Shown piece after piece: positions 45,771 through 64,000 of a stretch of DNA of 64,000 bases (position 1 is the first letter of the stretch; every line of letters begins with the position of its first letter). The translations under genes were made by a program, and so were the position numbers. A model generated the notes under the pieces. The model searched no databases. It was not told the DNA's origin and saw only the letters and a program-made list of their open reading frames with translations. Where the stretch lies: positions 178,871 to 242,870 of the forward strand of contig CBDCKN010000012.1 in the NCBI GenBank assembly GCA_965218295.1, in the 5' to 3' direction. The DNA comes from Longimicrobiales bacterium. Lineage in GTDB: Bacteria; Gemmatimonadota; Gemmatimonadetes; Longimicrobiales; Gaopeijiaceae.

Positions 45771-45830
45771 GCCGGTGTAGTTCGATGATCCAGCGCACGA
45801 GGTTCGTATAGGCTTGCTGCCAGAACGGCT
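45771..45830 (-). pseudogene. virD4: virD4 middle segment stranded between the two islands
   Basis: Encodes PFWQQAYTNLVRWIIELHR, overlapping both flanking virD4 pieces. Confidence 0.88.
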
Positions 45831-45846
45831 AACCTATCGTGCGATG

Positions 45847-45871
45847 TAACTCATTTTTTATCAACGAGTTA
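45847..45871. promoter_or_regulatory. IHF-like site in the att arm
   Basis: TATCAACGAGTTA matches WATCAANNNNTTR, within a TAACTC...GAGTTA inverted repeat; related motifs near 22502, 45708 and 63710. Confidence 0.55.
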
Positions 45872-46015
45872 TGGATCAGTGTGAGCTTACGTGCCTACCA
45901 CTTTTTCCGCCGAGACCAAGCGGATTCTGCTGGCTCTCTGTGGCCGCGAGCGGACGTAACTGTTCGGCCAAGCCGTGGGGAGCGTCGTGTTGTCGGATCG
46001 TGTGTGTGGGGGTGC

Positions 46016-46897
46016 TCAGCGGTTGAGGATGCGCTTCCAGTGCTTGGCGAGCGGGCGGAGCCAGACATCCTTGGTGGGCTTGCCGTACTGCTTGGCGGTG
46101 TCGTAGCGCCCTCGTCCCCGTGTGGTACCGACGCGGATCCAACCGGAGGCCCTGTAGACGCCGCCGGTGAAGCGGGGGACCTCGACGAAGGTCTCGATGA
46201 GGACGGGGGTGGTGTTGTAGCGGCGGGTCCAGTCGCGGGGCAGGCGGCGGCGGACGAGGGCGAGGATGTGGGATCCGAGGTTGGGGATGCGGATCCAGGG
46301 CAGGATGAGGAACCTGGGGTTGTCGATGACGAGCGGCAGGTTCTTCTTTCGCAGGGTCGGGGTCCATCCGATGAAGCGGTCGCGTGGAGCGAGGGACCAG
46401 GCGGCGGTGCTGAAGCCGAGTATGGCGAGCGGCCAGCCGTTGCGGTCGTGGACGGCGTAGCGCATCTGGGCGCCGACGAGGGTCTTGTAGCCGAGATAGT
46501 GGTGGCGCGCGACGAACTCGTTCCACAGCCTGCCCTGTCGGGTGCCGCCGACGACGGTGCGGAGTTCGAGGGGGCGGACCTCGTCGAGGATCGTGGGCGG
46601 GGGGAAGAGGGGCGGTTCGGTGTCCTGTCCGAAGACGATGGGGCCGGGTCGTTTCTGCCTCCACTTCGGGGGCGGCAGGACGATGAGGCCGTCGCTGTGC
46701 ATGGCGAGCATGGTGACGCGCGCCATCATGTCCTTGAGCCCGCCGTCGGGCTTGAACCAGCCGATGCGCCGGCAGAACTCCTTCGACAGGGCGTGGCGGT
46801 TGAGCGCGGGCGGTCCGGCGATCAGTCGGCGCAGCAGCGCCATTTCCGCGGCGGTGAAGTCGCGCCCGTGGTAGCGGCATTCGATGCGCTCGCTCAT
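46016..46897 (-). CDS. DUF4338 (DruA-like) domain protein
   Basis: Identical to 2640-3521. Confidence 0.82.
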   Translation of the reverse strand: MSERIECRYHGRDFTAAEMALLRRLIAGPPALNRHALSKEFCRRIGWFKPDGGLKDMMARVTMLAMHSDGLIVLPPPKWRQKRPGPIVFGQDTEPPLFPPPTILDEVRPLELRTVVGGTRQGRLWNEFVARHHYLGYKTLVGAQMRYAVHDRNGWPLAILGFSTAAWSLAPRDRFIGWTPTLRKKNLPLVIDNPRFLILPWIRIPNLGSHILALVRRRLPRDWTRRYNTTPVLIETFVEVPRFTGGVYRASGWIRVGTTRGRGRYDTAKQYGKPTKDVWLRPLAKHWKRILNR

Positions 46898-49164
46898 GCG
46901 GACGCCGTCATTTCGCGCCTGCGTCCGGCGTCCATCGACCACGGCAGCCAGGGCGACAGGTCGCCCGGCGGGCGACCGCCGCCGCGCGCGCACGCCGCCA
47001 ACCAGTCGGCGAGCCAGCGCGGCACGTCGAGGCCGTTCAGCCTCAGGGTGCCGGTCACCGAGTACATGAGCGCGGTGAACCGGGCGCCGGACTCGCTGTC
47101 GGAGCCGAACGACAGGCGCCGCCCGATGGCCGGGCCGCGCAGCAGCCGCTCGGCGAGGTTGTTGTCGAGCGGCACGCGGGGCCGGTCGAGGAAGACGCTC
47201 AGCCCCTCGCGGTGGTTGAGGAGCGAGCGCAGCGGCCCTCCCTCCCTCGCCTTTGGCGACAGGCGGGCGAGTTGGCGTTCGGAGGCCGCGAACATGCCGC
47301 CGAGCGCCTCGCTCAGCGCGTCGTGCGCCGCGTCGAACGCCGGGCTCTGGCGCTCGAGGCCGGGGTCGTGGAGCTCCAGCCGCGCCTTGTGCAGGCGGTA
47401 GACCGTGGCGATCCGCCCGAGCCACTCCCGGCACCAGCCGGTCAGATGGACGTGCCCGGCCGCGCACCGGATGAAGTCCCTGCGCATGTGCGCCCAGCAG
47501 AACGACAGCGTGACCCTGCCCCCGAGGAGACGCGCCAGCTTCTTGTAGCCGCTGTAGCGGTCGCAGACGAGGACCGTCGGGCACAGCGCCCCGTCGAACA
47601 GCTTCCGGGCCGCCTCGGCGCTGCGTGACGGATCCACATGGAAGTAGGCCGCGCCGCGGCCGACCGAGATCCACAGCCACGCGTACCCCGATCCGTCGCT
47701 GTCGCGCAGCGCCCGCACCCGCCAGCTGGTCTCGTCGGCATGGCGCAGCGCCGAGCCGTTCTGGTGCGCGAGGATCGCCGCGCCCACCGGCTCGAACAAC
47801 GGCGCCAAGCGGTGCACGCTGTCCGCCAGCGTGCCCGGCGAGACCGGCAGACCCTGGTCGGACAGCCACCCGCAGACCCGGTGCAGCGGGCGCAGGCACG
47901 CGTAGCGCTCGAACAGGAAGCGCGACCAGACGCTCGTCCCGTACGGCGTGCGGGCGAACAGCCGAGGCACGGGGGGCGCCGTCACTTCGGCGGGCGACGA
48001 CGCGCACCCGCACGTCCGCCGCCAGCGCGGGCGGCGGATCACCCGCCGGTGCGCCCGGACCTCGATCTCGACGAGGGCCGACTCCTCGGCGCCGTTGGCC
48101 GCGTACGGGCTCCCGCAACCCCGGCACACCCGCGCATCGGCGGGCGGGTTGTGCTCCTCGGTGCGTTCCTCAAGCCCCGGGCGCGGGGTGCGGCCGTGGA
48201 CCGGCGTGCCGGGCTGCTGGCCCCGCCGCCGCCCCGAACGCGGTCGCTCCTGCCTCTCGCACGCGCCGCCGGACTGCCCCTTCGGCAGCACCGTGCGCGA
48301 CGCGCGAAGCTTCGCCAGTTGGCCCTCGAGGCGCTCGATCCGCCGCCGCGACGCCCGCATCCTCCTGCCGAGCCGGGTCTTCTCCCGCGTCAGCGAGCCG
48401 ATCGTCGCCCTCTGGCGCCGCGATCTGCGCAAGGCCTTGCGCAACTCCGCGTCGGCGGCCGACGGCGACCGCGCCCGCCCCGCCTCGACCGCACGCCGCA
48501 GCCGCGCCGTCAGGCGGCCCTTCGACGCCTCCGAGACCTTCAGCGCCCAGCGAAGCGCCCCGACCTCCTCCGACAGCGACTCGACCCGGTCCCGCTGGTC
48601 CCCCAGCTTCGACAGTTCGCCGTGGATCTCGAGCATCTCGCGCAACTGCCGCCGCAGCGCCAGGATGTCCGCGTCCGCTTCGATGCGGGCCTTGTGAAGG
48701 TTCTGCACCTCGGCCGCGCGGGCATCGAGCGCCTTCTCCAGCGCCCAACCCTCCTCGCGAAGCCGTGCCACCTCCATCCGAAGCGCCATCTCCGTGCCGC
48801 GCTTCCCCGCGTCCACCCCGGCCTCCCGCAGCAGCCCGTGCAGACGCCCCACCTCGCGCTGCAACGCCAGGGCGTCCCACGCCGCGCGGCGGGCCTCCCG
48901 CGTCTCCGCGATCACCGCCCTCAGCTTCCGGCGCGACGCCTCCCACCGCCACTTCCACGATCCCGCTTCGCAGCGCGCCCGCACCTCCGCCCACCGCAAC
49001 TCCTCCGCGCGGGCCACCGCCGCCTCCGCTCGCTCGCGCTCCCGCTCGTACAGCGACCGCCAGTCCCCAAGCTCCGACTCCACGGAACCGGGCACCGGCC
49101 AAAGCTCCTCCAGCCCCTCGGCCAGCGCCACGTTCGCATGTCCGTTGCCGTCCCGCATCGCCAT
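46894..49164 (-). CDS. IS66-family transposase
   Basis: Identical to 373-2643. Confidence 0.92.
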   Translation of the reverse strand: MAMRDGNGHANVALAEGLEELWPVPGSVESELGDWRSLYERERERAEAAVARAEELRWAEVRARCEAGSWKWRWEASRRKLRAVIAETREARRAAWDALALQREVGRLHGLLREAGVDAGKRGTEMALRMEVARLREEGWALEKALDARAAEVQNLHKARIEADADILALRRQLREMLEIHGELSKLGDQRDRVESLSEEVGALRWALKVSEASKGRLTARLRRAVEAGRARSPSAADAELRKALRRSRRQRATIGSLTREKTRLGRRMRASRRRIERLEGQLAKLRASRTVLPKGQSGGACERQERPRSGRRRGQQPGTPVHGRTPRPGLEERTEEHNPPADARVCRGCGSPYAANGAEESALVEIEVRAHRRVIRRPRWRRTCGCASSPAEVTAPPVPRLFARTPYGTSVWSRFLFERYACLRPLHRVCGWLSDQGLPVSPGTLADSVHRLAPLFEPVGAAILAHQNGSALRHADETSWRVRALRDSDGSGYAWLWISVGRGAAYFHVDPSRSAEAARKLFDGALCPTVLVCDRYSGYKKLARLLGGRVTLSFCWAHMRRDFIRCAAGHVHLTGWCREWLGRIATVYRLHKARLELHDPGLERQSPAFDAAHDALSEALGGMFAASERQLARLSPKAREGGPLRSLLNHREGLSVFLDRPRVPLDNNLAERLLRGPAIGRRLSFGSDSESGARFTALMYSVTGTLRLNGLDVPRWLADWLAACARGGGRPPGDLSPWLPWSMDAGRRREMTASA

Positions 49165-50237
49165 GCCCTCGACGATACTACATTCCGGATCACGTTACCA
49201 GACCCCACCACACGATCCGACAACACGACGCTCCCCACGGCTTGGCCGAACAGTTACGAGCGGACGTAAGCGATGGAGTTGACTCGTACCCGTTCGGCCC
49301 GACCGTGGCAGAGCCGTCGGTCGGATCCTCTCCACAGCGATCAATCCCCCTTGGGTTACTGTCGGGCTTGGGGCACCCGTCCCGGCGCTAGACCTCCCTC
49401 GGGCGGAGTAACGGAAGATGGTCGTCAGCTGCGAAGTCCTTTAGTGAGGTGTCGCCTGAGCGGTGCTTCACGCCGGGAGGCAATCAGGGACCGAGACATC
49501 GCCATTATCGCCGCACGAGTCGCCGGGGCTTCCCTGGGAGGCATTGCGGCGGACTTCGGCATTCATCCGGTCCACGGTGCTCCGGGTGCTGAACCGTGGT
49601 GGTGCGCGAACCAAGACAGGATAGACGCGGGGTCCGGGGGGCCTACCGGGCAGTTGGGCGGGCGATGGGCAAAGAGGTGGATGTGGAAGGGGGGCAGGTG
49701 CTGGACCGGGGTGTGCCACAAGCCAACGCCAGAAGGGTTAGGCCACCTCGTCGCCGCGTTGGACGTGGTGCTGGACTCCAGAACCTCGGTTCCGGCGGGG
49801 TTGCCGTTCCCATCTGGGGCCTGACCGAGTCGGACACCTGATCGGCGCTGTACACGTGCACGCGGGCGTTCAGCGGCGTTCGCGGTTCCCTCGGCGGGCT
49901 GGCCACCGCCGCCGACGTGCCGTTCTGATCGGTGAACCCGGCCCCGCGCCCTCCACCGCCGATGTCTGGCTCGGCCTTCCCCACGCGGTCGGTTTCATGG
50001 GTGATTGTATACCTCTCACAGAATCCGCATAGCTATGCACTAGCGTCTCAACAATATACAGGCCCATATGTAACCCGTGTCGGGCTGTATAATCATGCGT
50101 CGGGTGTGCTCCTCGGAAATGTCGGAGACCTCGATAGTAGGCCACGAGGCTCTTTTCGATCTTAGCGTTTCTCCGGCGGTCGAGGCGGCGGCGGCGGCGG
50201 CGGCCTCTCTGGTGGAGGCCACCCATCCTGGCGTGCC

Positions 50238-50294
50238 GGCGGCCTAGGTGCTGGCGGCCTAGGTGCTGGCGGGCTAGGTGCTGGCGGGCTAGGT
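50238..50294. repeat. 15-bp tandem repeat GGCGG(C/G)CTAGGTGCT, about 4 copies
   Basis: Read directly; overlaps the stop of 50289-50810. Confidence 0.85.
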
Positions 50295-50810
50295 CGACGC
50301 TGCTGTGAGTCGTCTCTTCTGAGTCTCGGCCTCCCAGTACCGGTAAGCCTGTTTCTCAACCTGGCCGGATAGTTTCTTGTCATATGTCCCCGTTTCCGCC
50401 ATCTGTGCCGTCGCCTCGTCCATCCGACTCGTCAACAACATCAGGCTTTCTCTGACACTGTGGTCGTCACTTGCTGAGTCGGCTTCGATTCCAAGCCACA
50501 GGCTATCGAATTCGACGTAAATTTGGCTGAGACGCGTGTGACACGATGCCGTGCTTCGAAGCCTACCACCTGCGCGATAGAGCAGAGGCCACAGGCTACA
50601 GACGATGGTCCCAAGAATGGGCAGCCAAGTGAACCGTGCGAAGTTCGACATCGTGAATGCCATGCCGCACATAGCCCCTACCGTTGTGCAAACCGCAGCG
50701 ATGCGATCCCGCTTTGCCATTTTATCGGCTAGTTCGCCGTAGTACCTCTGCAACCTGTCCGCCTGGAACCTCCCATCCCAGACGGCTGTGCGTATCGTGG
50801 CGTCTATCAT
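50289..50810 (-). CDS. Two-TM SLATT-like membrane protein
   Basis: Helix with RYY, two adjacent TM segments, helical C-terminus; AGGAG RBS. Confidence 0.5.
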   Translation of the reverse strand: MIDATIRTAVWDGRFQADRLQRYYGELADKMAKRDRIAAVCTTVGAMCGMAFTMSNFARFTWLPILGTIVCSLWPLLYRAGGRLRSTASCHTRLSQIYVEFDSLWLGIEADSASDDHSVRESLMLLTSRMDEATAQMAETGTYDKKLSGQVEKQAYRYWEAETQKRRLTAAST

Positions 50811-51078: not shown

Positions 51079-52014
51079 TCATGACTCGCTTCCCGGCGGG
51101 CCGGAAACCGGGAGTACGGCAACCATGTCCGCTTCTTCATACACGACCACGTAGTCTTGGCGAGGGTTGGGGAAGGACGCGCCGAACAAGTGCTTTGTCT
51201 TCAGCGCGTCCGACTTCTTGCCATAAACTGGCCTGTTGCCGCCAAACTTGGGGGCTGTCCATCGGACCGTTGAGCCTAGCGTCAGCGGTGGCTCAAGTGC
51301 CCCTGCGATTCTCTGGTACCGGTCAATGGACCCGCCCGGCGGCAGGATTACCAAGTCGGTGTGAATCTTCACCGCCCAGCACTGGTACTCCGTCAGCAGC
51401 AGGACCGCATGTTCTGGAAAGTGCGGGTTCGCGGGGTCGTCAGTGAACGCCACCAAGGGTCGGATCAGCTTCTTCTCCGGGGACAGCAACTGTTCACGGA
51501 TGGATGACACCGCCTCACCTTGAGCGTACCGATATCCCGCCGCCCCCAGCAGGCTGAACACCATCAAGTACGCGCTCTTCAGTAACCCCAACAGGATGGC
51601 GTCGGGCTTGGGTTCGGTCTGGCGTAGCGTGAACGGTCCGTGGCTCTTCCCTACTACATCGCGCCGGGTTCTGATCCTGATTTCATCCTTCCCGATGTCA
51701 TAATGCTTCGGGTGGATGGTGTAGGGTCGCTTGCCGTCACCTTCAACGGTGATGGGGTAGCCACCCTGTTCTTGAGCCCGGTAGAAGCGGGCCACGGCTT
51801 GGTCTATCATTCCCGTCGCCGGGCCGGTGTTGCACTGCATACACGTGAGGCAGGCGGGCTTGCCGCCCACCGATTCTTGGGGGGCGTGTTCGAGCGTCAC
51901 GACTTCGCCAGCCCGTACGTCGGGTTCAGTGAACTCGGTCAAGCAGATTGGACAGTGCGTGTTCCCTTGCTCGAAGAGCCGGAGCCGTTTTTCTTGCGGA
52001 CTGGTTCTGGTCAT
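51079..52014 (-). CDS. HNH-type endonuclease domain protein
   Basis: CPIC...TLEHAPQESVGG...TCMQCN; LLKSAYL. Confidence 0.75.
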   Translation of the reverse strand: MTRTSPQEKRLRLFEQGNTHCPICLTEFTEPDVRAGEVVTLEHAPQESVGGKPACLTCMQCNTGPATGMIDQAVARFYRAQEQGGYPITVEGDGKRPYTIHPKHYDIGKDEIRIRTRRDVVGKSHGPFTLRQTEPKPDAILLGLLKSAYLMVFSLLGAAGYRYAQGEAVSSIREQLLSPEKKLIRPLVAFTDDPANPHFPEHAVLLLTEYQCWAVKIHTDLVILPPGGSIDRYQRIAGALEPPLTLGSTVRWTAPKFGGNRPVYGKKSDALKTKHLFGASFPNPRQDYVVVYEEADMVAVLPVSGPPGSES

Positions 52015-52119
52015 CGTTGCCCCTTTTGTCTCGCTTTTCTCGCTGAAGGGGGGTCGAGGTGGAGGGGGTTGGGTGATCGTCCTTGAATGTAGCCCTGGGG
52101 GTGTAGAATCGGGACCGGG

Positions 52120-52450: not shown

Positions 52451-55400
52451 TCAGATATCGACCTCCGCGTCGGGATGGCCGACGGCGAGCGCGCTCGTCC
52501 ACGCAAGGCACAGGTCGCGGGAGCGGTACGCCCCGTACACGGCCTTCTCGTCGCGTTCGACGATGGGGAAGGTGGAGTAGACGTAGCGGATGTCGTCCCG
52601 ATCCGTCACGCCGTAGAGGTGGAAGTAGAGCGCGTCCAGCTTGGCCCGCAGGTTAAGGCGGCGCTCGGCATCCCAGCGGAATGGCGGCTGGACCTCCCCG
52701 CCCTCATCCACATGGCCCATCTCGCGGGCGAACCGGGCCATGTCGTGCGCCGTGTAGGTGAGTTCGAGCACGGCCTCGCGGACGATCTCCTCCGCCGTCT
52801 TGGGTCCGAAACTCACGGTGCGGTACCGCTCGAAAGGGACGACGGGAAGCTGTTCTAGAATGAACAGATTCAGGGTCTGACCCTGGACCTTCTGGCGCGT
52901 TACGAAGTCGAACACCGTCGCGTTGAGATTGGCCGCGAGCAGCCATTCGCTGCGCTCCGAAGTCTCCGGCTTCAAGACCGGCACCTTGTTGCCGAATCCG
53001 ACAGCCGGGAAAAGCGCGGCGATGAACGTCCGGACGTTGGTCGGCGCGGTGATCTCCTTGAAGCCCACAACCCAACTGGACTTCGAAGGCCAAGCACATT
53101 CGGACGCTCGCACCCAGTACTGAGGGTCCGGCAGCCAGTTCGGGTCGCCATGCTGCTCAAGCGTGGCCGGTTTCGGCTGGGCCGGGCGGTGAAGGTTCTT
53201 CGGGTTGATGACGATGCTGGCGGCCCGGTGGTCGAACGCCTGCACCATCTTGCCCTCGTAGAGCGGCACCCATTCGCCGGACGGGCTCTGGTATCGGTTG
53301 CCGCCGACCGGCCACGCGCCTTCCTGCTCCTCCAGTTCCGAACGCGTGCGGAACAGGCCGGAGTCGTTGGTCATGTGGAACATCGTCGAGTACTTCACCG
53401 GCCACGCCTTCACCTCCTCACCTGACGAGCGGTCGACCAACACCGGCAGGCGGTCGTAGATCGCGGTCGTGAGTTCCGCGTCACGCCGAGAGCGGAAGAT
53501 CGGCGCCGTGCCGGTGTTTGGATTGACTCGGGCGAAGTCCGCGGCAGACAGTGGAAAGCACCGCTCCGGGTCTTCGACTCCCGACACGGCATGCAGATAG
53601 AAGGCGCACTGGGCGGCCTCGGGGAGGCGCCGGGGGCTCGCAACGAAGACGCAGAACTTGAAGGACGCGTGGACATCGGGGAAGAACACCTTCTTGTTCT
53701 CGAAATCGTAGAGCGCCTTGAGCCTGTCCTCCGTAGCCACGCTCTTGAAGAACGGGGCCGCCGTCCAGTCTGATGCAATGCCGGATGGCACCAGCAGCCC
53801 AACCATGCCATCGGGCTTCACCAGCGTCATGGCGTGTTCGACGAACAGCGAGTAGAGGTTGAGGTCGCCCCGAGCCAGCAGCGGATAGTCTCCCGATGTC
53901 CGGGCAACCCGCGCGGCGGCCGCCGCCCGCTCGCTTGCCAGCCGGAAGTCCCGGGCCAGCGGGTCTCCCGCCTTCTCGAGCGCGGCAATCATGCCCTTGC
54001 GGTCGGCGGCTCGCGGAGCCATGGCGATCTCGCGGCGGCGTGCCGCGAACCATTCGACCTGTTGCAGCTTCATCCGGTCCCAGGGCGGATTGCCGATCAC
54101 GGCGTCGAAGCCGCCCGTCAACTCCGTGGCCTCCCATTCCGACCACACACCCGGGAAGGCGACCTGCCAGTTCAGGAACCGCTCGCTCGCGACGAGTTCC
54201 AGCGCAACCGTCAGAACGCCATCGGCCTCCTCCGAGCCGGACAGCCCCGTCTGGGCGATGTCGATCGGATTGCCGGACGTACCCTGTAGCCAATTCAGAT
54301 ACGCGGCTTTGACCTCGCGTCTTCGAAGACCCAACCAGTCGAACGCGTGAAGCAGCGACATGAAGGCGTCCAAAGGAGCGGTCATCTCCGAGATTTCGGC
54401 GAATATGTCGGCGGAGCGATGCGCTTCGGCGATCTCGGCATCCGTCAGCCCCTCGATGATCTGCATGGGCGCCGCCGCGCGCGTGGCTCGCTCGAGCGGC
54501 TCCCTCAGGAACAGACTGCTCGTCTCCTCCGTCCTGTGGACGGCGGGCGCCACCCAGGTGCCGAACAGGCTGTCGCCGCAGCGCAGGTGATGATCTAGAA
54601 AGCTGAGCGGCGCCCCGACAGTGAAGGTGTGGAGCCACAGCGACACCTTGGTCAACTCCACCGCCATCGGGTTCTTGTCCACGCCGTAGACACAGCGTTT
54701 GAGCACCATGCGGCGGACGATGTGCCGGTCGTCGAGCTGAGCCGGATCGAACGTCCAGCCACGGTCCTCGGCGTTGTCGATGATCGTGTTGCGGATCCCG
54801 TCGATCCGCTCCACCAACGGCGAGAGGTATCCGTCCACGAGGGCCTCAGCCTCGGCCATGGCCTCGATGACGCGGTCGGCTAGGTAGTCCACAAGGTTGA
54901 CCAGGAAGTGTCCAGAGCCCATGGCCGGGTCGCAGACCTTCAACTCCAGCAGCATTTCCGCCGGGTCGAGCCGCTTCAAGCGGCCCATGCGGCGGTCCTC
55001 CGATACCTGGCTTGACGGGATATCCTCCGCCTTGGCGGCGAACGCCTCCATGCGCGAGTCCGCGAGCGGTCCGACCGTCTCCCGCACGATCAGGTCAACC
55101 AGATCGTCGGGCGTGTAGTAGCTGCCCGAGTCCTTGCGCGCGAACACGTTCGGACGGACCACGATGTTCCCATCCTCGCGAACGACCTCCCGTTCGAGCA
55201 GCCGCTCGTAGATCGAGCCGAGTTGCTGGACCCCGAGATCCCGGTAGTTGATGTACCGCCGCCTCGGGCCATTTCGCTCGAACGAAAGCGCATCGATCAC
55301 GTCGGCCATCACCGTGTCGCCCAGCCGAACACGGGAGAGCAGGGGAGTGCGGTCGCGGTCGAACAACCCGCCGTTGTAGGGCGGCAGGCCGATAGAGGCA

Positions 55401-56482
55401 TCACCCGCATCGATGGCGCGGCATAGGTCGTCGAACGCCGACCAGTAGCGCGCCGCCGATGCTGAGAACACGTCGCCCTGGTCCTTGCGGCGGCCGATGT
55501 CGCCGCGCACCCGGTCCCGGAGCGCGTAGTCGTCGTAGCGGCTGTCGCGTACCGGCAGGAGATCGCGGTCTTCGGCGTAAAGCACGAAGAGAAGCCTGTA
55601 GAGCAAGACCAACGCTGCGTCGCGCACTTCGGGCAACGGGGCTTCGGGATCTGCCTTGGCCAGTGCCCGAACAAAGTCCGGGAAGACTTGCTCGAAGACC
55701 AAGACGGACAGGCTGCCGGCGACCCTTTCTTGATGGAAGCGTCCTTCCTCGATCGCCCGCTCGTGAAACGTTCGCTCGTCCGCCGCGTCGGGAAGGAAGG
55801 CATCCCGCCGGAACACCAGCCAGAACACCCTGAGCCAGTGTCTCCGGACATCGGCCGGGATGGCGTCGTGGCCATCGCCCGGCATCCCGAGAACCGCCGC
55901 CAGATTAAGCTCGAAGAACTGTTCGGCGACCGAGCGCGCGCCCGCGTAGTACAGACGCCAGCGGGCGCCGTTCGTCAGAATGCCCCACCGGAGCTTGCCG
56001 GTGGTCTGGTCGTCGATGCGGCGGAGGTAGCGCAGCATCTGCGTCGAGGGCGCGGACTCCTCGCCCCGCCGCCCGGAGCGACGGTCCAGCGGTCGAAGCC
56101 ACCGTTTCGATTCCACGACCGCGAGGCCGTGCTCGTAGCGCTTCCACTCCTCGGCGAAGCGGTTCGCCCGGTCCTTCGAGGCGCCGTCGGCGAACAGCAA
56201 GCCGTCCGGCACGTCTTCGCGTCCGCGCGCCGAGAGGTTCTGCTGCCTGAGGCTGGCAGTCCAGCCGAGCCGCGCCAACACCGGCCAGATCAGGTCATCC
56301 TCGGTCTGGCTCTCGTTGGGCGACAGAGCCGTCGGGAAGCGGTTGAACAGGCCACGCAACGCGGCCTCGAGGTCTGCGAGTCCCTCGTCGGCCAAGTCCC
56401 GCCAGTCCCGAAGCTCGGCGATCGTTTCTCGAAGGAAGTCCTCGGCGAACAGGCTCCCCTCGAAGGGCCGGACCATCGTCAT
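52451..56482 (-). CDS. Type IIG/IIL fused restriction-modification enzyme (Eco57I-like)
   Basis: PDGLLF...VESK; ILTNGARWRLY; GSYYTP; DPAMGSGHFL; IGNPPW; C-terminal target-recognition region. Confidence 0.9.
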   Translation of the reverse strand: MTMVRPFEGSLFAEDFLRETIAELRDWRDLADEGLADLEAALRGLFNRFPTALSPNESQTEDDLIWPVLARLGWTASLRQQNLSARGREDVPDGLLFADGASKDRANRFAEEWKRYEHGLAVVESKRWLRPLDRRSGRRGEESAPSTQMLRYLRRIDDQTTGKLRWGILTNGARWRLYYAGARSVAEQFFELNLAAVLGMPGDGHDAIPADVRRHWLRVFWLVFRRDAFLPDAADERTFHERAIEEGRFHQERVAGSLSVLVFEQVFPDFVRALAKADPEAPLPEVRDAALVLLYRLLFVLYAEDRDLLPVRDSRYDDYALRDRVRGDIGRRKDQGDVFSASAARYWSAFDDLCRAIDAGDASIGLPPYNGGLFDRDRTPLLSRVRLGDTVMADVIDALSFERNGPRRRYINYRDLGVQQLGSIYERLLEREVVREDGNIVVRPNVFARKDSGSYYTPDDLVDLIVRETVGPLADSRMEAFAAKAEDIPSSQVSEDRRMGRLKRLDPAEMLLELKVCDPAMGSGHFLVNLVDYLADRVIEAMAEAEALVDGYLSPLVERIDGIRNTIIDNAEDRGWTFDPAQLDDRHIVRRMVLKRCVYGVDKNPMAVELTKVSLWLHTFTVGAPLSFLDHHLRCGDSLFGTWVAPAVHRTEETSSLFLREPLERATRAAAPMQIIEGLTDAEIAEAHRSADIFAEISEMTAPLDAFMSLLHAFDWLGLRRREVKAAYLNWLQGTSGNPIDIAQTGLSGSEEADGVLTVALELVASERFLNWQVAFPGVWSEWEATELTGGFDAVIGNPPWDRMKLQQVEWFAARRREIAMAPRAADRKGMIAALEKAGDPLARDFRLASERAAAAARVARTSGDYPLLARGDLNLYSLFVEHAMTLVKPDGMVGLLVPSGIASDWTAAPFFKSVATEDRLKALYDFENKKVFFPDVHASFKFCVFVASPRRLPEAAQCAFYLHAVSGVEDPERCFPLSAADFARVNPNTGTAPIFRSRRDAELTTAIYDRLPVLVDRSSGEEVKAWPVKYSTMFHMTNDSGLFRTRSELEEQEGAWPVGGNRYQSPSGEWVPLYEGKMVQAFDHRAASIVINPKNLHRPAQPKPATLEQHGDPNWLPDPQYWVRASECAWPSKSSWVVGFKEITAPTNVRTFIAALFPAVGFGNKVPVLKPETSERSEWLLAANLNATVFDFVTRQKVQGQTLNLFILEQLPVVPFERYRTVSFGPKTAEEIVREAVLELTYTAHDMARFAREMGHVDEGGEVQPPFRWDAERRLNLRAKLDALYFHLYGVTDRDDIRYVYSTFPIVERDEKAVYGAYRSRDLCLAWTSALAVGHPDAEVDI

Positions 56483-56809: not shown

Positions 56810-56957
56810 CGAGATTACCGCCGCCGTAGGCCGTCCGGCGCGCTTGCCGGGGAGCTGTCTGGCACCCTTAAGGTGGCTAAGCGAGATTACCGCCGCCGTA
56901 GGCCGTCCGGCGCGCTTGCCGGGGAGCTGTCTGGCACCCTTAAGGTGGCTAAGCCAG
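56810..56957. other. Putative oriT with a 72-bp tandem duplication
   Basis: Units 56810-56881 and 56882-56953; ColE1-type nic CTGG^CTTA on the minus strand (56957-56950), upstream of mobC. Confidence 0.75.
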
Positions 56958-57092
56958 CCTACGCAGTGTTGAACACTGCGGCCTGGCAAGGGGACGCTGC
57001 GCCCCCCTTAGACCCCCGGCTTCGCGCGCCGCTGGCCGAGCAGCGGACGGGCGCGGGAGACCGCCCCCCGGAACCCCGCTCGCGGTGCGCCC

Positions 57093-57431
57093 GTGCCTGA
57101 GCGCCGCACCGTGATGCTCGCCGCGCGCGTTACGCCGGCGGAGCATGCCGCCTGGCGGGAGAAGGCGGCGGCGGCGGGCGTGTCGCCGTCCGAGTTGTTG
57201 CGGCGGGCGATGGCGCAAACGCGAACGTGGACCGCGCCGGCAAGGGCCATCGAGCGCGAACGCACCCGTCAGATCGCCCGCATCGGCAACAACCTGAACC
57301 AGCTTGCGCGCTGGGCGAACTCCCACAAGACGGCAGCCGAAGCCGTCACCGTGATCGCCAACCTCGTGTCGTTCGAGCGGTCGCTGCTCGCCGTGGCCCG
57401 CCCGGATGGAGACGGCGGGGATGCACGTTAA
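57093..57431 (+). CDS. mobC: MobC/MbeC relaxosome accessory protein
   Basis: RHH-like N-terminus; QIARIGNNLNQLARWAN. Confidence 0.9.
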   Translation: MPERRTVMLAARVTPAEHAAWREKAAAAGVSPSELLRRAMAQTRTWTAPARAIERERTRQIARIGNNLNQLARWANSHKTAAEAVTVIANLVSFERSLLAVARPDGDGGDAR

Positions 57432-58863
57432 GGTCCTCCCGCGCGGCAAGGGCTCGGCCCGGGCGGCGGTCGACTATCTCGTCGGCGAGCGCGACGCCGA
57501 GGGGCACAGGCGCGAGGGCGTCGAAGTGCTCCGCGGAAACCCCGACATGGTGGCCGCCGTCGCCGACTCGCTCGAGTTCGAGCGCAGGTACACGTCCGTC
57601 GTGATCGCGTGGGCGCCCGACGACCGGCCGACCGACGAGCAGATCGAAGCCGTCCTTGACGAGTTCGAGAAGACTGCCTGGGCCGGACTGGAGCCGGACC
57701 GCTACGCGTGGACGGCGGTTCTGCACCGCGAGCGCGGCGGCGGCGTCCACGCGCACGTGCTGGCCGCGCAGTGCGATCTCGAGACGGGCCGGAGCCTGAA
57801 CATCGCGCCGCCCGGCTGGCAGAGGACCTTCGACCCTCTACGCGACGCGTTCAACCACGAGCACGGCTGGAGCCGCCCGGACGACCCGGCGCGGGCCAGG
57901 GCGCAGCAGCCGGGCCACCGCGCCTACATCGAGGCGGCGAAGCTGCGGGCCGGGCTCGAACACGAGGCCGACCCCCGCAACCTGATCCGCGACTACCTGG
58001 TGCACCGCGTCGAGCACGGCGCGGTGCGAAGCCGCGCCGACGTGATCTCCGCCCTGGAGGATGTGGGCCTCGACGTGCCGCGCCAGGGCAAGGACTACAT
58101 CACCGCCCGCGATCCGGACAGCGGAAAGCGGTGGCGGCTGAGAGGAGCGCTGTATGAGCACGACTTCCACCCAGAACGACTTGACCTCCCGGCTGCGGAG
58201 CCGGCTGGAGACCGACCGGAAGCGGATCGAGGAGACGGCCGCGCGCGAGCTCAAGCGGCTTGGAGAGAGCTTGAGCGCCGTCAGAAGCGACGCGCTGCGT
58301 TCCATCGAAGCCGATACGGTGGAGGCGACCGGGCGGATGCGCGCGATGCTGCTGAGGGCTTGGCTCCGGCCCTTGGTGGTCGGCCTGAGCCTTTTTCTCG
58401 GGTTCAGCGGCGGGAGTTGGGTGACGATGCACTGGTTGTCGAGGAGCATCGAAGTCCGGATCGAGGCACTGGCGACGCTGAACCGGCAGGTCGAGCAGGC
58501 ACGCGGGACGCTGGCCGAGATCGAGGGGGATCGGTTCGTGGTGCTGCCGTTCGGCACACTGGACAATCCGCCCTGGACCGTGCGCGGTCGGCCTGCCGTG
58601 AAGCTATCGAGACAGTGAGGGAACTGTATGACCGACTTGGAACGGCGGCTGACGGCGGCCTTGGAGAGGTTGTCCGCGCAGTACGAGATGGAACAGCAGC
58701 GGCAATCAGAGCAGGTCGAAGCCTTGCAGCGGCAGGTCGAGCGGCTGACCGGGCAGGTGACACGCTTGACCGAATACTACGGGACGTTCGGCGCAGCGTC
58801 GCGCGGCCGCTGGAGGTGACGCGGCGGCGCGGGCCAGAGCGGGACCATGGTCCCAGCCGGTGA
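57421..58863 (+). CDS. mobA: MbeA-like (MOBP) relaxase
   Basis: GKGSARAAVDYL; RYTSVVIAW; HRE...HAH triad; GWSRPDDP; start refined to ATG at 57421. Confidence 0.88.
   Translation: MHVKVLPRGKGSARAAVDYLVGERDAEGHRREGVEVLRGNPDMVAAVADSLEFERRYTSVVIAWAPDDRPTDEQIEAVLDEFEKTAWAGLEPDRYAWTAVLHRERGGGVHAHVLAAQCDLETGRSLNIAPPGWQRTFDPLRDAFNHEHGWSRPDDPARARAQQPGHRAYIEAAKLRAGLEHEADPRNLIRDYLVHRVEHGAVRSRADVISALEDVGLDVPRQGKDYITARDPDSGKRWRLRGALYEHDFHPERLDLPAAEPAGDRPEADRGDGRARAQAAWRELERRQKRRAAFHRSRYGGGDRADARDAAEGLAPALGGRPEPFSRVQRRELGDDALVVEEHRSPDRGTGDAEPAGRAGTRDAGRDRGGSVRGAAVRHTGQSALDRARSACREAIETVRELYDRLGTAADGGLGEVVRAVRDGTAAAIRAGRSLAAAGRAADRAGDTLDRILRDVRRSVARPLEVTRRRGPERDHGPSR
58154..58618 (+). CDS. MbeB-like protein nested in the relaxase gene
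   Basis: AGGAG RBS; ELKRLGESL; TM segment; ColE1-like nesting. Confidence 0.7.
   Translation: MSTTSTQNDLTSRLRSRLETDRKRIEETAARELKRLGESLSAVRSDALRSIEADTVEATGRMRAMLLRAWLRPLVVGLSLFLGFSGGSWVTMHWLSRSIEVRIEALATLNRQVEQARGTLAEIEGDRFVVLPFGTLDNPPWTVRGRPAVKLSRQ
58628..58819 (+). CDS. MbeD/MobD-like protein nested in the relaxase gene
   Basis: MTDLERRLTAALERL...QVTRL coiled coil; GAGGGA RBS. Confidence 0.75.
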   Translation: MTDLERRLTAALERLSAQYEMEQQRQSEQVEALQRQVERLTGQVTRLTEYYGTFGAASRGRWR

Positions 58864-58963
58864 TCGGCTCCGTCAGTGGAAGCGACGAGCGGACAGACAG
58901 TGACATTACGGCGGGTGGTTCTGCTGAACTCCCGAATGAACACACCGGTCCCGCTCGACGGTT

Positions 58964-59452
58964 TCATGCGCTCGCCATCGGTTGGAGGCTGTCGAGGAAA
59001 GCCCACGCGATGCACTGCTCAACGTCCCCCAGCCATTCCATAGCCTCCGGATGGACGGCCAGCGCCGGTAGCAAGGCCGCAATCACCCACGGGCCGTCCG
59101 GAGGGTTGCGGAGGTCGCCGGGGTCGCATCCGTCGATGAACCAAGGGGCCGTCGCCACGGTCTCGCGCCATGCACGCTGCGGGCCAGCGCCACCGCCTTC
59201 CGCCACCGCCAGCACCGCCACGGGCAGCCCGTCCGGGGCAACGATGCGCGCCTGCAGGACGCGCGGGCCGTGTGGATGCGCGAGCACCTCCAGCCGCCAC
59301 GGATCGTCCGGACCCCGCAATGGCGCGGGGGTTGCGAACGCACCCGCCGCCGCGATTAGCCGTCCGTACGCGCGCGTCACGTGGTCGACCACCTCGGAGC
59401 GATCCGAATGGCGGTAGTGCCCCGTGTTCGCGGTCCAGTGTTCGAGCCTCAC
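58964..59452 (-). CDS. Hypothetical protein
   Basis: 162-aa ORF with protein-like composition. Confidence 0.5.
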   Translation of the reverse strand: MRLEHWTANTGHYRHSDRSEVVDHVTRAYGRLIAAAGAFATPAPLRGPDDPWRLEVLAHPHGPRVLQARIVAPDGLPVAVLAVAEGGGAGPQRAWRETVATAPWFIDGCDPGDLRNPPDGPWVIAALLPALAVHPEAMEWLGDVEQCIAWAFLDSLQPMASA

Positions 59453-60069
59453 GGGTCGATTCCCACAGAATAGTTTGAAGGGCCGTCTCCCTGCCTGCCA
59501 TCGTCACGGCCAGTCTGGGTTCGCCCTCCGACCGGAGCACCATCAACAGTACAAGGCATTTCACACACCGCCCGCGAGTGCAAGAGAGTTTTCCACAGCG
59601 GTGTGGGAAATTGATTCAGGGTACCGAGAATCGGCGAAGGTCCTGGCGGATTGGCGTGAGGGCGAACGGTCGTCGGAGGAACTATTTCCCGAGCACGATG
59701 TGGTCCCACTCCGGCATCCCGTTGCGGAGATGCAATTCGGGGGGCCAAAGGGCGCTGATAACGAGCAGCAGTGACCCGGCCCAGGCCCTCGGGGATAGAG
59801 AACGGTCCGGGGCCGCTTCCGGCTTTGCACTAGCGCCGGTCAGATATGCCGCCCCGGCCTTGTTCTGCACAACATGCACTGGGACTGCCTCGACAGCCTA
59901 GGCACCGAGCGGACCGTTCGCCACACCGAGTCTGGGTTGCGCGGTCTCCGCTTTGACCGCAAGCCTTCGAGAGGTGGTCGAGCCAGGGGAGGATCCTGTA
60001 AGGAATCCCGGTTAGATTCGTGCAGGGCCGATGGAGGAACGGCCGGATCATTGACACCTTGGAGAACTG

Positions 60070-61113
60070 ATGGCAGTGCCAGCGGGCGAAGTGCTGATCC
60101 TGGACACCAACACCTTTGTGGCCGAGATCGGCCTGACGTCGAGGCGCGGGTCAGCGCTCAAGCACTACCTTTCGCGTCGGGGGATGCAGTTGGTCGTGCC
60201 GGAAGTCGTCGCTGAAGAGTGCGAACGGCACTTGACCAGGCGTGCAAGGGAGAAGCGAGCGACAGTCGAGGCGAATCTGCAATGGCTCGGACGGTTCTGC
60301 GGTGAAGTGAATGGTTGGCAGGGCCCAAACGATGAGACCATAGAACAACGTGCCAAGGCGCTTGCCCGCGCGGAGCATCTAGGCGCTGTCGTCGTTCGCG
60401 AAACCCTCGGGGTGCGCGGCCGCGCAGATTCGAGGCATCAGGCCGAGCAGCCGCCCAGCCATCGGAAGTCCCAGTTGTCGGATTGCAGAATCTGGGAACA
60501 GTGCATGGAACTGCTGGTCAGGTGCCATGTCGTCTTCGTGTCGGGTGATCACGATTTTCTTGGACTCCGCGAGCCCGACAGGCTGCATCCGGCGTTGCGG
60601 GCCGAGGCTGAAGCAATCGCCGGAGATCGGAGCTGGGCGTTTCACCGGACCATGGGGTCCCTGCTTGGGGAACTCAGGAGTGAGATACAACCGATCCCGG
60701 ATGATGTGGTGTTCGCCTTCATCTACCAGTCGATCGCCTCGGATGTCGAGAAGCTGGCATCGAGGAGTGGCTGCCACCCCAAGCGGGTCGGCCAGGTCAA
60801 GCAGACACTACTGACGACGGATGAGGCCGAGGTCCTTGAGGTCCGTCTGGAGATAGCAGACATCTGGCAGAGCGCTGATGCGGCGAAGACGATGGACTTC
60901 CGCTTTTCAGGCTCGTTTCACTACCGTCTGACGGAGGAAGTGCCCTGCGACCTAATGGCTTCGAGGGTGTCGCTATTAGCACGGCAGTCCGATGGATCGG
61001 TTCGCGCCGTGAAAGGTTCTTATGTGACAGCAAGTGCAGGAGGCATACACCTCGGCGCGCCGCCTATCCGACCGGAGCCCGAAGAATTAGGGACATGGGT
61101 CAGCACAGATTGA
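60070..61113 (+). CDS. PIN-domain protein (DUF4935-like)
   Basis: ILDTN; VPEVVAEE; DCRIWE; FVSGDHDF. Confidence 0.8.
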   Translation: MAVPAGEVLILDTNTFVAEIGLTSRRGSALKHYLSRRGMQLVVPEVVAEECERHLTRRAREKRATVEANLQWLGRFCGEVNGWQGPNDETIEQRAKALARAEHLGAVVVRETLGVRGRADSRHQAEQPPSHRKSQLSDCRIWEQCMELLVRCHVVFVSGDHDFLGLREPDRLHPALRAEAEAIAGDRSWAFHRTMGSLLGELRSEIQPIPDDVVFAFIYQSIASDVEKLASRSGCHPKRVGQVKQTLLTTDEAEVLEVRLEIADIWQSADAAKTMDFRFSGSFHYRLTEEVPCDLMASRVSLLARQSDGSVRAVKGSYVTASAGGIHLGAPPIRPEPEELGTWVSTD

Positions 61114-61428
61114 GTTGCTGTGAATCGTAGTAGCCGCGAGCGGAACAGCTAGTATGCGCCCGACGGCTCGGCGCGCGTCCCCCTCCCAGCTTCCTTCCCA
61201 GTGATTGCCGCCAGGGAGGCCTCGGCTCGGGAGCCTGCTTGGTCGCGAACGCAAAGCAGACCGCGGGGGAAGGAGAAGTCCCGCTTCTGCCTGGTACCGC
61301 TGGGGCAGTCGTACCGTGGTGGCGTTCCGGGAGGAACCATCGATACGGTGAAGGGGGGAGGTACCTCCCCCCTTCGGCCCTCCCCATACATCGTGAACCG
61401 TGAACGAAGAAACAAGGACAGCATACCC

Positions 61429-62280
61429 ATGACCGAACGCGACGACTCCACAACTTCCGTCGAGGAATACCTCCAGTATATGTGTGACCATGCAGGAGTC
61501 GGCCTCGAGGAGATCACCGACCGAGACATCGGCGAAGGAGTCCTTGAACCGGACTTCCGGTCTCAGTTGTTCGCGATCCGCATCGTCCTGGAACGCAATG
61601 ACGAGGCCGAAGAGAAGGTCTCGGCGGAGATCAAGAAACTCGAGGCCGATATCCGGGAACGCGGTGGCAACTCATGGATGATAGATCATTGGGTCGACAA
61701 GCTGCACAGCTCCACGTTTCTTGATGCTACGCACAGCATGGCGGCTGTTGGCTTGATAGCCCCGCTCATGGAGTCCCTGTTTGATCGGGCTTTCCTCTAC
61801 CTGAAGCATGCCATAGGGGAGTCGTATTCACTGGATAGCGGCCATGAACGTTGGCAACTCGACGATCGATGGAACCCTCGCTACGTGTGGAAGAACGGGC
61901 GTCAATCTCGAGACATCGCCAAAGGAATCGTGCAGCTTGCCCAAGCTATCGATTTGAAGAAGCACCTTCCTGACGATCTCCAGAGAACCTTGTCGGTTCT
62001 CTTTGAGTATCGCAACAAGATGTTCCATTTCGGTCTCGAATGGCCCAACAAGGATCTGAAGGACTTTGCTAACTTGATTAAGTCGAACGGATGGACGGAT
62101 TGCTTCACAAGAGCCGAATCAGATGGGGATCCTTGGATCTTCTATATGTCAAGGGATTTCATCGGGCACTGCCTAGATACCGTGGATGAGGTCATCGAGG
62201 GCGTCGGCGCGCGCGTACGCCTGTCTTGGGCGGACGACACACCCGGCCTCGCCGAAGTCAGTTCTACGCTGCTGTCTTGA
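61429..62280 (+). CDS. HEPN-like protein
   Basis: LMESLF and EYRNKMFH (RxxxxH); start refined to ATG at 61429. Confidence 0.6.
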   Translation: MTERDDSTTSVEEYLQYMCDHAGVGLEEITDRDIGEGVLEPDFRSQLFAIRIVLERNDEAEEKVSAEIKKLEADIRERGGNSWMIDHWVDKLHSSTFLDATHSMAAVGLIAPLMESLFDRAFLYLKHAIGESYSLDSGHERWQLDDRWNPRYVWKNGRQSRDIAKGIVQLAQAIDLKKHLPDDLQRTLSVLFEYRNKMFHFGLEWPNKDLKDFANLIKSNGWTDCFTRAESDGDPWIFYMSRDFIGHCLDTVDEVIEGVGARVRLSWADDTPGLAEVSSTLLS

Positions 62281-62400
62281 CCTCCTTCCTGGCTGAGGGC
62301 TTGCGGGTGCGCCCGGCCACGGAGCAGGGCAGCAGACTGCGTGCGGGCTCACCGCACCGGGGCGAGACTGGGGGGCGGCGACATTGCGCGCCTCGAGGGT

Positions 62401-63630
62401 TCAACGGGTCGATCTGGCCTCCCGGCCTCCGTTCCCACCTGCCACATAGTTCGCCCATTCCTCCATGAGCCGCCGCCGCCGCTCGAACAGGTCCGTGCGC
62501 CTGTAGGCGGCCTCGACCTGGTTGCGAACCATGTGTGCCAGCGCCGCCTCCGCCACCTCGCGCGGGTGGTCGGTCTCCTCGGCGGCCCAGTCCCGGAACG
62601 AAGACCGGAAGCCGTGCGGCACCGCCTTGATCCCGAGCCTCTTGAGCAGTCGGGACATCGCGGTATTGGAGAGCGGGTTTCCGCGCATCGGGAACACGAG
62701 CGGACTACCTCGACCCACCGCCCTCGCCTCCCCGAGGATCTCCAACGCGCGACGAGAGAGGGGGACCCGGTGCTCGCGGTTCGTCTTCGTGCGCGGGGCC
62801 GGAATGGTCCACACCCCATGGTCCACGTCGATCTCCGTCCACGCAGCCCCGCGGACCTCGCCGCCGCGGGTCGCTGTCAGCACCAGGAATTCGAACGCCA
62901 GCTTCACGAGCGGCTTCGAGGTCGAGGCCCGCACCTTTCCGATCGCGGACGCAACCTCGGCGTGCGGCAACGCCCGCATGTGTTGCACGACGTACTTCTG
63001 CGCGCCGAGCGCCGGGCCGATCCGGTCGCAGGGGTTGTCCGGCCGGATCTCCATCGCGACGGCCCATTCCATGACCGCCCGGATGCGCTGGCGGAGCTTC
63101 CGGGCGGTGGTCGCCTTCTGGTGCCAGATCGGAGCCAGAATCCCGATCACGTCGGCGCTCGTCACCTCCGAGACCGGCGTCTCGCCGATTCGGGGGAAGA
63201 CATGGCGCTCCAAACTGCTCAGCCATAGCCGGGCATGGTGGGGGGAGCGCCACCCCGGACTCAGTTGATCCCGGAGCCGCCGCGCAGCCTCGGCGAAGGT
63301 GGGCATCGACTTGGCCCGCCGCTTCTCGGACAGGGGGTCGCCACCCTCGCGGGCCAGCTTCCGGTTCGCGAACGCCTTCTCGCGGGCCTCCTTCAGAGAG
63401 ACCAGAGGGTATCCGCCGAGCCCGAACTCGGTTCGGCGGCCCCGGATCGTCAGGCGCTGAATCCAGCCCCGGCTCCCCGTGGGCCGGACATCGAGATAGA
63501 GGCCGTTCCCGTCGCAGTACCGTCCCGCCCGGCTCACGTTGCGCACGAAGGCCGGCGTGAGCGCGTTGTGCGGATGCTGGCCGCGCGGCTTGCGTTTCGG
63601 AGGTCGTCTCGAGAGCGGCATACCCACCAT
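62401..63630 (-). CDS. int: P4-like tyrosine integrase of island B
   Basis: DGNGLYL arm-binding domain; TATRGGEVR; PHGFRSSFRDW; ALAH; AYRR; start at 63630 or 63621. Confidence 0.95.
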   Translation of the reverse strand: MVGMPLSRRPPKRKPRGQHPHNALTPAFVRNVSRAGRYCDGNGLYLDVRPTGSRGWIQRLTIRGRRTEFGLGGYPLVSLKEAREKAFANRKLAREGGDPLSEKRRAKSMPTFAEAARRLRDQLSPGWRSPHHARLWLSSLERHVFPRIGETPVSEVTSADVIGILAPIWHQKATTARKLRQRIRAVMEWAVAMEIRPDNPCDRIGPALGAQKYVVQHMRALPHAEVASAIGKVRASTSKPLVKLAFEFLVLTATRGGEVRGAAWTEIDVDHGVWTIPAPRTKTNREHRVPLSRRALEILGEARAVGRGSPLVFPMRGNPLSNTAMSRLLKRLGIKAVPHGFRSSFRDWAAEETDHPREVAEAALAHMVRNQVEAAYRRTDLFERRRRLMEEWANYVAGGNGGREARSTR

Positions 63631-63772
63631 TATATCAGCCACAATGTGGCGGATGCAAGGGGACGGCAGAGAACACCCACGGATCGCATCCAACCCTACA
63701 TGTTCATTATAACTCAATGTATTCAAGCCACTTGTGTACGATATGGGACCTGTCTGGATGATCAGGTTATCC

Positions 63773-63970
63773 ATAGGCTTGCTGCCAGAACGGCTCGCGG
63801 CTCTTGCCGAAGAGCTGGTTGATCAGGGATGAGACGCTGTATGCGAGCGAGTAAGTGTCGAGCAGCGGATCGTCGAGCGGGTTCCACTGCCAGGCGCCGT
63901 CGAGGCCGATCTCCAGGTAGTCGTCGGCGCGTCCGGCGTTCTCGAGGATCCTCCGCACGTCGTGGCAGAA
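63773..63970 (-). pseudogene. virD4: virD4 5' segment (partial)
   Basis: FCHDVRRIL...WNPLDDP...GKSREPFWQQAY joins 45830-45771 through the 23-bp repeat. Confidence 0.85.
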
Positions 63971-64000
63971 GCAGGGATCAATCTTCGCAAGTCCCGATGG

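Follow-up and report, generated by a model that had tools for sequence, protein, structure and literature searches.

Island B, an integrase- and relaxase-bearing element of ~18 kb within the 64-kb stretch of DNA analysed here (the window), sits at a set codon within virD4, the coupling-protein gene of a 17-kb conjugative helper element. It probably leaves this gene as a circle, and this circle is probably carried by an intact copy of the helper rather than served by the thrice-broken gene in which it resides. The island has definable boundaries and a definable gene content, its target rejoins in frame when the island is removed in silico, its site is reused in other genomes, and it is stacked with two further islands, A and C.

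Boundaries and gene content of island B

The island occupies positions 45808-63795 and is bounded by exact 23-bp direct repeats, on the integrase side at 63773..63795 (virD4 codons ~236-243) and on the far side at 45808..45830, a sequence that occurs twice in the 64-kb window, where 100 shuffles give an expectation of 0.00 matches. The gene intB (62401..63630, minus strand; start codon uncertain) encodes a P4-like tyrosine integrase with an open frame, catalytic-type motifs and, in profile searches, the domains Arm-DNA-bind_3 (PF13356), Phage_int_M and Phage_integrase (PF00589); integrases 96-97% identical to it occur in two other genera. The possession of its own integrase between att repeats, and of a relaxase and a candidate oriT without a type IV secretion system, fits an integrative and mobilizable element (IME).

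The mobilization module consists of mobC (57093..57431, plus; PF05713/PF21983), an MbeA-like MOBP relaxase (57406..58863, plus), which matched PF03432 and, at E 4e-28 and thus under the family cut-off, NF047848 MbeA, an mbeD-like gene overlapping the relaxase (58628..58819, plus; MbeD PF04899, E 1.6e-07; NF033829), and an mbeB-like gene (58154..58618, plus) named by position alone, which is kept in sister islands (61-67%) and gave no significant Pfam or NCBIfam match and no plasmid match. The active-site motif of MbeA is HEN; this motif is absent from the relaxase of island B, in which a three-histidine stretch H-x7-HxH is found. The candidate oriT (56950..56987, minus) is a hairpin (z -3.99) followed by a nic-like motif, with the nick predicted near 56953/56954, and was named by comparison with the ColE1 nic motif. 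Of the eight mobC paralogs in the genome, seven have this nic-like 8-mer at the corresponding place upstream. A perfect 72-bp tandem duplication (56810..56953) ends, within one base, at the predicted nick. The module resembles the ColE1 mob region (mbeC-mbeA/B/D, MOBP5) in gene order, in the overlapping small genes (the mbeB-like one placed by position alone), in the MbeA and MbeD matches and in the position of the (here candidate) oriT upstream of mobC, and differs in being part of an integrated island rather than a plasmid and in the mbeB-like frame without a family match.

Profile searches of the island found no coupling-protein or pore gene. ColE1-type mob modules need a helper coupling protein and T4SS, and the view of island B as a mobilizable, helper-dependent element, already proposed in the sequence-only reading, is supported. 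The inventory given there (oriT, mobC, relaxase and mbeB/D, with neither coupling protein nor pore) holds for mobC, the relaxase, mbeD and the missing transfer genes, while the oriT stands as a candidate and mbeB by position.

The cargo comprises a type IIG restriction-modification-like gene (52451..56482, minus), common to the islands of genomes G239 and G104, a frame with a PIN_12 domain (60070..61113, plus), a frame with a weak HNH_5 match (51079..52014, minus; E 0.017, under the cut-off) and three frames with no family assigned in profile searches (50289..50810, minus; 58964..59452, minus; 61201..62280, plus). An IS66-family element (45956..49257, minus) with an 8-bp target duplication is set 125 bp in from one end of the island; run X1 has a nearly identical contig that lacks it. 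No AlpA-type excisionase was recognised among the 86 small frames of island B and no PF05930 match falls within it, all nine such matches of the window's assembly lying elsewhere. With no excisionase of its own and with IS66 125 bp from one end, the island may be immobile here. Neither a circle nor a clean empty-site joint for island B appeared among the joints listed for the public runs X1-X4 at 92% (best 15 of 91) or for X1, X2, X4 and X5 at 99% (three joints listed); the runs X1-X5 are contigs, which show presence but not absence, rare forms dropping out, and no RNA run was listed among those carrying the sequence. Joints that skip the island at 92%, with other letters between and short sides, probably represent diverged intact virD4 alleles.

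The helper element and its broken virD4

The interrupted virD4 does not belong to the host core but to a resident, multicopy, ICE-like element of 17 kb; a host chromosomal virD4 was accordingly rejected, while the precise position of the island within virD4 was confirmed. In this element virD4 is followed by the virB11/trbB ATPase gene (20221..21030, minus) and the anti-restriction gene ardC (18991..20016, minus), and a gene conserved among helper copies, orfY (18080..18970, minus), has no family assigned. The pore is of the P-type (Trb/VirB), with matches to VirB2/4/6/8/9/10/11 and TrbJ, and alpA precedes virB2. The search for a helper relaxase was negative: for geneX, neither Pfam nor NCBIfam gave an informative match, Atlas gave only unnamed clusters, and a structure model was of low confidence (pLDDT 42.7). 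The window's copy is decayed and without an integrase module of its own, its virB4 carries a one-base shift, perhaps through a sequencing error, and both helper copies carrying island B (in the window and in G239) end at the same point without the helper integrase. Helpers loaded with islands are decayed, and many insertions lie in helpers that another island had already broken.

The virD4 gene is interrupted at residues ~180 (the end of island C), ~243 (island B) and ~255 (island A), the last break being 42 bp beyond that of island B. Residues ~178-243 of virD4 lie at 63773..63971 (minus) and the short piece between islands B and A, residues ~237-255, at 45771..45830 (minus); the 3' part (residues ~254-679; TraG-D_C and TrwB_AAD_bind in a profile search) lies at 21201..22481 (minus). 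Island A (22475..45777; 23.3 kb), with a 7-bp core and an integrase at 44330-45601 (minus), resembles island B in lacking alpA, and both carry type IIG-like and other defence cargo. The far end of island C lies at 63972..64000, where the contig ends. Between the likely 5' part of virD4 and the operon lies a fourth island, the link of the contig carrying this part (C15) to that of the window being inferred, not assembled.

All virD4 junctions rejoin in frame on removal of the islands in silico. When island B alone is removed, the frame meets a stop after 81 codons; when both B and A are removed, 502 codons are open to the natural stop. Thus, excision of island B alone would not restore virD4, since islands A and C still split the gene: three excisions within virD4 are needed, in addition to the fourth island upstream. 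The earlier expectation that excision would yield a transferable circle and help to restore virD4 is supported as regards the in-frame junction of island B, but not as regards repair by this excision alone, and no circle was seen in the contigs. A search of the assembly (90.7% complete) for an intact coupling protein was negative, and the window's virD4 piece gave its only TraG-D_C match.

Reuse of the site in other genomes

The insertion site of island B is supported as a family target. The same virD4 codon adjoins four of the seven members of the integrase clade, and the site is used, with differing flanking codons, in the window, G239, G091 and L160; a fifth, more distant integrase occupies it in reversed orientation in G325. 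The G239 island (14,376 bp; integrase 96% identical) retains both repeats, and its removal gives a rejoined frame of 680 aa, the virD4 of this copy having a single clean break. The same genome contains two full-length virD4 copies, one of them in a helper whose genes, from repressor through integrase, all have matches, and the site is empty in two other helper copies of this genome. In the remaining three of the seven members the core is present, borne by the element itself, and virD4 is not alongside, so either specificity is incomplete or the flanks were rearranged; searches of 78, 25 and 19 kb in G141, G118 and G104, respectively, gave no far-end repeat, and G118 has a clade member and no PF10412 match. 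Sister islands of G118, G104 and G091 carry alpA after the integrase gene, which neither island B nor the G239 island does.

Four separate integrase clades each have their own virD4 site, and subclades follow insertion sites in a midpoint-rooted FastTree tree, read without support values, over which the virD4-targeting clades are spread among non-helper sites; one clade uses both virD4 and geneX. Relatives are also found in virB4, trbJ, virB11 and the helper integrase, besides geneX, so that the whole helper is a target, while 34 of the 69 P4-like integrases classified in four genomes have no helper sequence upstream. The sites fall in the 51st-85th percentile of conservation among virD4 windows (62 distinct alleles), which does not support the suggestion that they mark the best-conserved parts of the gene.

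Possible route of transfer and competing explanations

In the reading that we favour, the integrase would recombine the 23-bp repeats to release a circle, with an AlpA-type excisionase presumably supplied in trans because island B encodes none; the relaxase would then nick the candidate oriT, and the coupling protein and pore would come from an intact helper that either resides in the cell or enters it. In the recipient, the circle would re-insert into a helper virD4. Such an insertion would be cheap for the host and would keep the island in lineages visited by the helper, while the repair of virD4 would be a by-product, of consequence only in genes broken by the island alone. No resident alternative helper was found for island B in this assembly (90.7% complete), which speaks against the intact-helper reading, and traG-type elements have been noted in many decayed ICEs (Coluzzi 2017, PMC5357655), which speaks for it.

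The tie between helper activity and satellite excision advanced in the sequence-only reading, here extended so that induction would excise all embedded islands, rebuild virD4 and load the circles on the restored machine, is not supported as stated and appears unlikely. Every junction does rejoin in frame in silico, islands A and B lack the alpA that the helper has before virB2, the virD4 break in G239 is single and clean, the only TraG-D_C domain of the assembly is that of the window's virD4, and the logic has been demonstrated for a phage satellite (Tommasini 2023, PMC10111431). However, three excisions within virD4 and one upstream would be required in a decayed helper that lacks an integrase here and has the virB4 shift (possibly a sequencing error), the C15 5' part is joined by inference rather than assembly, helper-specific control is not implied, as the assembly has nine AlpA matches, and in S. 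suis two elements embedded in helpers, of which one is defective, gave no detected excision. In G239 the same island at the same site coexists with a helper that is intact, which makes a gate unnecessary in that genome.

It is still less probable that loosely specific integrases simply persist in helper genes, where they are harmless to the host, with island B not tied to the coupling protein. The 34 of 69 integrases without helper sequence, the insertions elsewhere in the helper, the clade using both virD4 and geneX, the moderate conservation of the sites and the G118 member without any PF10412 match agree with such a refuge, but the reuse of one codon across genera and the element-borne virD4 core in members without a virD4 flank are unexpected from loose insertion. 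Selection of the island for silencing a resident helper, either to relieve the host of the burden of conjugation or to block rival satellites, with restriction-modification cargo given in return, seems very improbable: the defence cargo of B and A, the decay of island-loaded helpers and the suppression of its helper by SGI1 would fit, while empty sites persist in two other G239 helper copies and many insertions struck helpers already broken.

Relation to known systems and significance

The closest likeness is to the Firmicute IMEs in traG (VirD4) of Tn5252-superfamily ICEs, such as IME_Sco1050_traG_site1, site2 and Tn6104 (PMC5357655; Guedon 2017, PMC5704250), which share with the island B family an integrase and relaxase without a pore, site-specific insertion within the coupling-protein gene of the helper and occurrence in decayed ICEs, with two traG sites and as many as two elements in them. 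Those elements use a serine integrase and a Tn5252-superfamily helper with a FATA pore, whereas island B has a tyrosine integrase (PF00589, PF13356), a ColE1-type MOBP module and a helper with a P-type (Trb/VirB) pore, three islands lie in one gene, and the family has at least four virD4 sites. Helper-embedded PICIs (PMC10111431) likewise have tyrosine integrases near P4/PICI, repeatedly evolving new sites in helper genes, with one subclade per site, some off-target events and AlpA beside the integrase; their helper is a prophage hit in late genes instead of a conjugation gene, their excision after induction was measured, whereas that of island B is predicted, and here the targeting clades are scattered across the phylogeny, intermixed with non-helper sites. 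P4-like integrase islands at tRNA or guaA 3' ends, for example GIsul2, in which AlpA increases circle formation (PMC9376610), share the integrase domain set and, with the sister islands, alpA after int, but leave the target gene intact, while island B breaks its target and lacks alpA.

Searches of open-access papers listed none that treats virD4-embedded elements with a tyrosine integrase, or this helper. With the present family the pattern comes to include tyrosine integrases and a P-type machine, the basic idea being already in print for streptococcal elements (Coluzzi 2017) and for phage satellites (Tommasini 2023): excision of streptococcal serine-integrase elements in traG was proposed to restore the helper (Coluzzi 2017, PMC5357655), and gating by elements in essential conjugation genes has been a hypothesis since 2017. 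A bolder, doubtful proposition is that P4-like integrases, one site after another, took over a single compact conjugative element found in Gemmatimonadota and other phyla (at least four virD4 sites, besides virB4, trbJ, geneX, virB11 and the helper integrase) as the conjugative counterpart of helper-embedded phage satellites, the stacked islands forming a three-lock virD4 gate in which the alpA-less islands A and B would be freed only by the helper AlpA, so that induction would release all passengers before the pump is made.

The family offers natural contrasts: one gene is found empty, singly occupied (G239) or triply occupied (window), and islands occur with and without alpA. Its parts (integrase, 23-bp site, alpA) are compact. 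If such a gate were true, split conjugation genes in genome surveys should not be counted as dead; if false, the islands would be passengers that mark and speed the decay of the helper.

Boundaries and gene content of island B

Island B (45808-63795) is a real, well-bounded mobilizable element embedded in a helper, and it is delimited by an exact 23-bp direct repeat at 45808-45830 and 63773-63795, with two matches in the window against 0.00 expected. The source genome (3.57 Mb, 17 contigs, 90.7% complete) places the window at the end of contig C12. The gene set comprises a P4-like tyrosine integrase (intB, 62401-63630, minus strand), mobC, an MbeA-like relaxase, an mbeD-like gene, a type IIG restriction-modification-like gene, a PIN gene and IS66, while searches of the island for coupling protein or pore genes returned none, in agreement with the sequence-only reading. 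The same reading had listed mbeB and oriT as well. The sole basis for the mbeB-like ORF is its position. The oriT is a good candidate, with a hairpin (z -3.99) followed by a nic-like motif, the ColE1 motif serving as reference. The nic-like motif occupies the equivalent position upstream of 7 of the 8 mobC paralogs of the genome, and a perfect 72-bp duplication, possibly a trace of relaxase activity, terminates at the predicted nick. Identical IS66 copies (3302 nt, 100%), whose second ORF matches DruA/DUF4338, are found in tandem at 1-3589 and inverted in island B at 45956-49257; the latter insertion is recent, since contigs of one public sequencing run (X1) contain the far end of the island without IS66.

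The virD4 target and its helper

The repeat is coding sequence of a virD4, and intact alleles of that gene (about 680 aa) continue across both island junctions. This virD4 had been ascribed to the host, but belongs to a 17-kb element (the helper) that encodes a repressor, alpA, virB2, virB4, virB9, virB10, trbJ and virB6, then virB8, geneX, virD4, virB11, ardC, orfY and its own tyrosine integrase. The helper is called ICE-like because the three copies compared in genome G007, which has five intact virD4 genes, are 95% alike across 17 kb in different flanks. No relaxase was identified among the helper genes; geneX (L113:8776-9699) and orfY (18080-18970), both conserved and with no informative family match, may include an unrecognised one. 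The 78 best virD4 loci of the genome collection are mostly of Gemmatimonadota (Longimicrobiales, Ca. Palauibacter), with Acidobacteriota, Gammaproteobacteria and Dehalococcoidia also present, and 57 of them, in a list that favours intact copies, have the gene full length in one segment.

In the window, virD4 is cut at residues ~180 (island end at 63972-64000), ~243 (island B) and ~255 (island A, 22475-45777; length 23,296 bp). The proposal that excision helps to restore the gene was borne out in that the junction rejoins in frame, but in-silico removal of island B alone leaves 81 open codons, and removal of both B and A gives 502, ending at the natural stop. The likely 5' part, at C15:528014 and followed by a third integrase, would join the window's virD4 across a contig gap, with a rival junction on C3; a fourth island of ~20 kb lies directly upstream of the C15 start codon. 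Neither tblastn nor three Pfam families revealed an intact virD4 in this assembly (90.7% complete), and the window's helper copy stops after orfY and a small neighbour, without the integrase module. At other virD4 pieces of the genome (C13:184628-195697 and C3:297375-297593) the att ends are joined to unrelated sequence, pointing to rearrangement via island ends, and the C13 5' half stops at the site where the window's 3' part starts. Against a single virD4 3' part, the genome has nine hits for the island relaxase and ~19 P4-like integrases.

Island A carries a McrBC-like pair, a helicase-nuclease, a MazF-like gene and a PDC-M57B match, as well as remnant copies of orfY and the geneX-virD4 spacer at 42141-43150; neither a full relaxase nor alpA was found in it. 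Its integrase is 96-98% identical to five others, every one at virD4 residue ~255. Elsewhere in the window, a giant fibronectin-III/SWM-repeat protein (7185-17450; frame of 3421 codons, 624-bp repeats) is encoded, with a tandem array at 17086-17526 adjoining its gene.

Reuse of the insertion site

Among 314 genomes of the family, 3 show the island B junction pattern, the source genome counted, and at least 17 of 260 genomes have integrases at E below 1e-200 (seven candidates scored per genome). In a tree of 94 integrases of at least 300 aa (FastTree, midpoint root), intB forms a clade with six others; of these seven, four (the window, G239, G091, L160) adjoin virD4 at residue 243-244 and three (G141, G118, G104) have the core, exact or degenerate, beside other DNA; a more distant integrase in G325 uses the same virD4 site in reverse orientation. 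The clean case is genome G239, with both repeats, 14,376 bp, a sole virD4 break and a rejoined ORF of 680 aa. The two att repeats of that island (C4:2844900-2859280) differ by one base in the core's right half, which would fit strand exchange in the left half. Three other clades, 31-56% identical to intB, occupy residues ~180, ~255 and ~502, and the sister group inserts just upstream of the virD4 start codon. One clade inserts at the Walker B codons (~502-505; L074, L075, L076, L078, L080, L243), mostly in reverse; breakpoints also recur at ~250 and ~240 (L063, L061, L074; source-genome contig C3, L062), with a shared junction sequence particular to each.

Mobilization and competing readings

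The integrase intB would excise island B, the relaxase would nick the candidate oriT, and a helper would transfer the island. For traG-resident elements with serine integrases, Coluzzi 2017 (PMC5357655) proposes that excision restores the helper, and records such elements in decayed ICEs; island B would work likewise, but is not a member of that group, as the integrase class and the helper differ. Guedon 2017 (PMC5704250) describes two elements in two traG sites and states that none of those ICEs had been tested, and PMC7168690 detected no excision of two embedded elements. In helper-embedded phage satellites, the phage counterpart, excision was measured, according to Tommasini 2023 (PMC10111431), whereas for island B it is inferred. 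Searches of the literature outside subscription journals brought up none that deals with virD4-resident elements using a tyrosine integrase.

AlpA generally aids P4-type excision (PMC9376610). An alpA was looked for and not found in island B, island A and the G239 island, while it is present in the sister islands of G118, G104 and G091 and in the helper; island B would thus need AlpA in trans, or leave slowly. As the genome has nine AlpA matches, that protein could come from elsewhere than the helper.

The sequence-only reading tied helper activity to satellite excision, and such a co-ordinated gate is a plausible arrangement, but a weaker proposition in this genome than was supposed: repair of virD4 would take three or four excisions on a decayed helper lacking its integrase, and contigs of five runs showed no excision junction of island B. 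Moreover, G239 has an intact helper at another locus, with the site empty, so its island needs no virD4 repair. This repair burden and the intact helper of G239 favour mobilization of island B by another intact helper copy, which is probably how it moves, even though the search of this assembly (90.7% complete) turned up no alternative helper; by comparison the gate is unlikely, a neutral refuge more doubtful still, and interference very improbable.

Helper genes as integration targets

A survey classified 77 integrases; setting aside 7 that stemmed from different searches, and 1 that was a partial duplicate, left 69 from four genomes (G000, the source, with G001, G002 and G005). These lie in the virD4 frame (13), just upstream of it (5), in geneX (4), trbJ (3), virB4 (3), the helper integrase (2), virB11 (1) and other helper spacers (3); one more is doubtful, and 34 have no helper sequence upstream. 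Integrase kin in these counts are not independent, and by distinct sites virD4 accounts for four of roughly fifteen, its insertion sites falling at the 51st-85th percentile of conservation. The coupling protein is only partly the target: virD4 is the most used helper gene in this sample, and the target is the whole helper. What is unusual is the triple stacking and the site-by-site spread of P4-like integrases over one helper.
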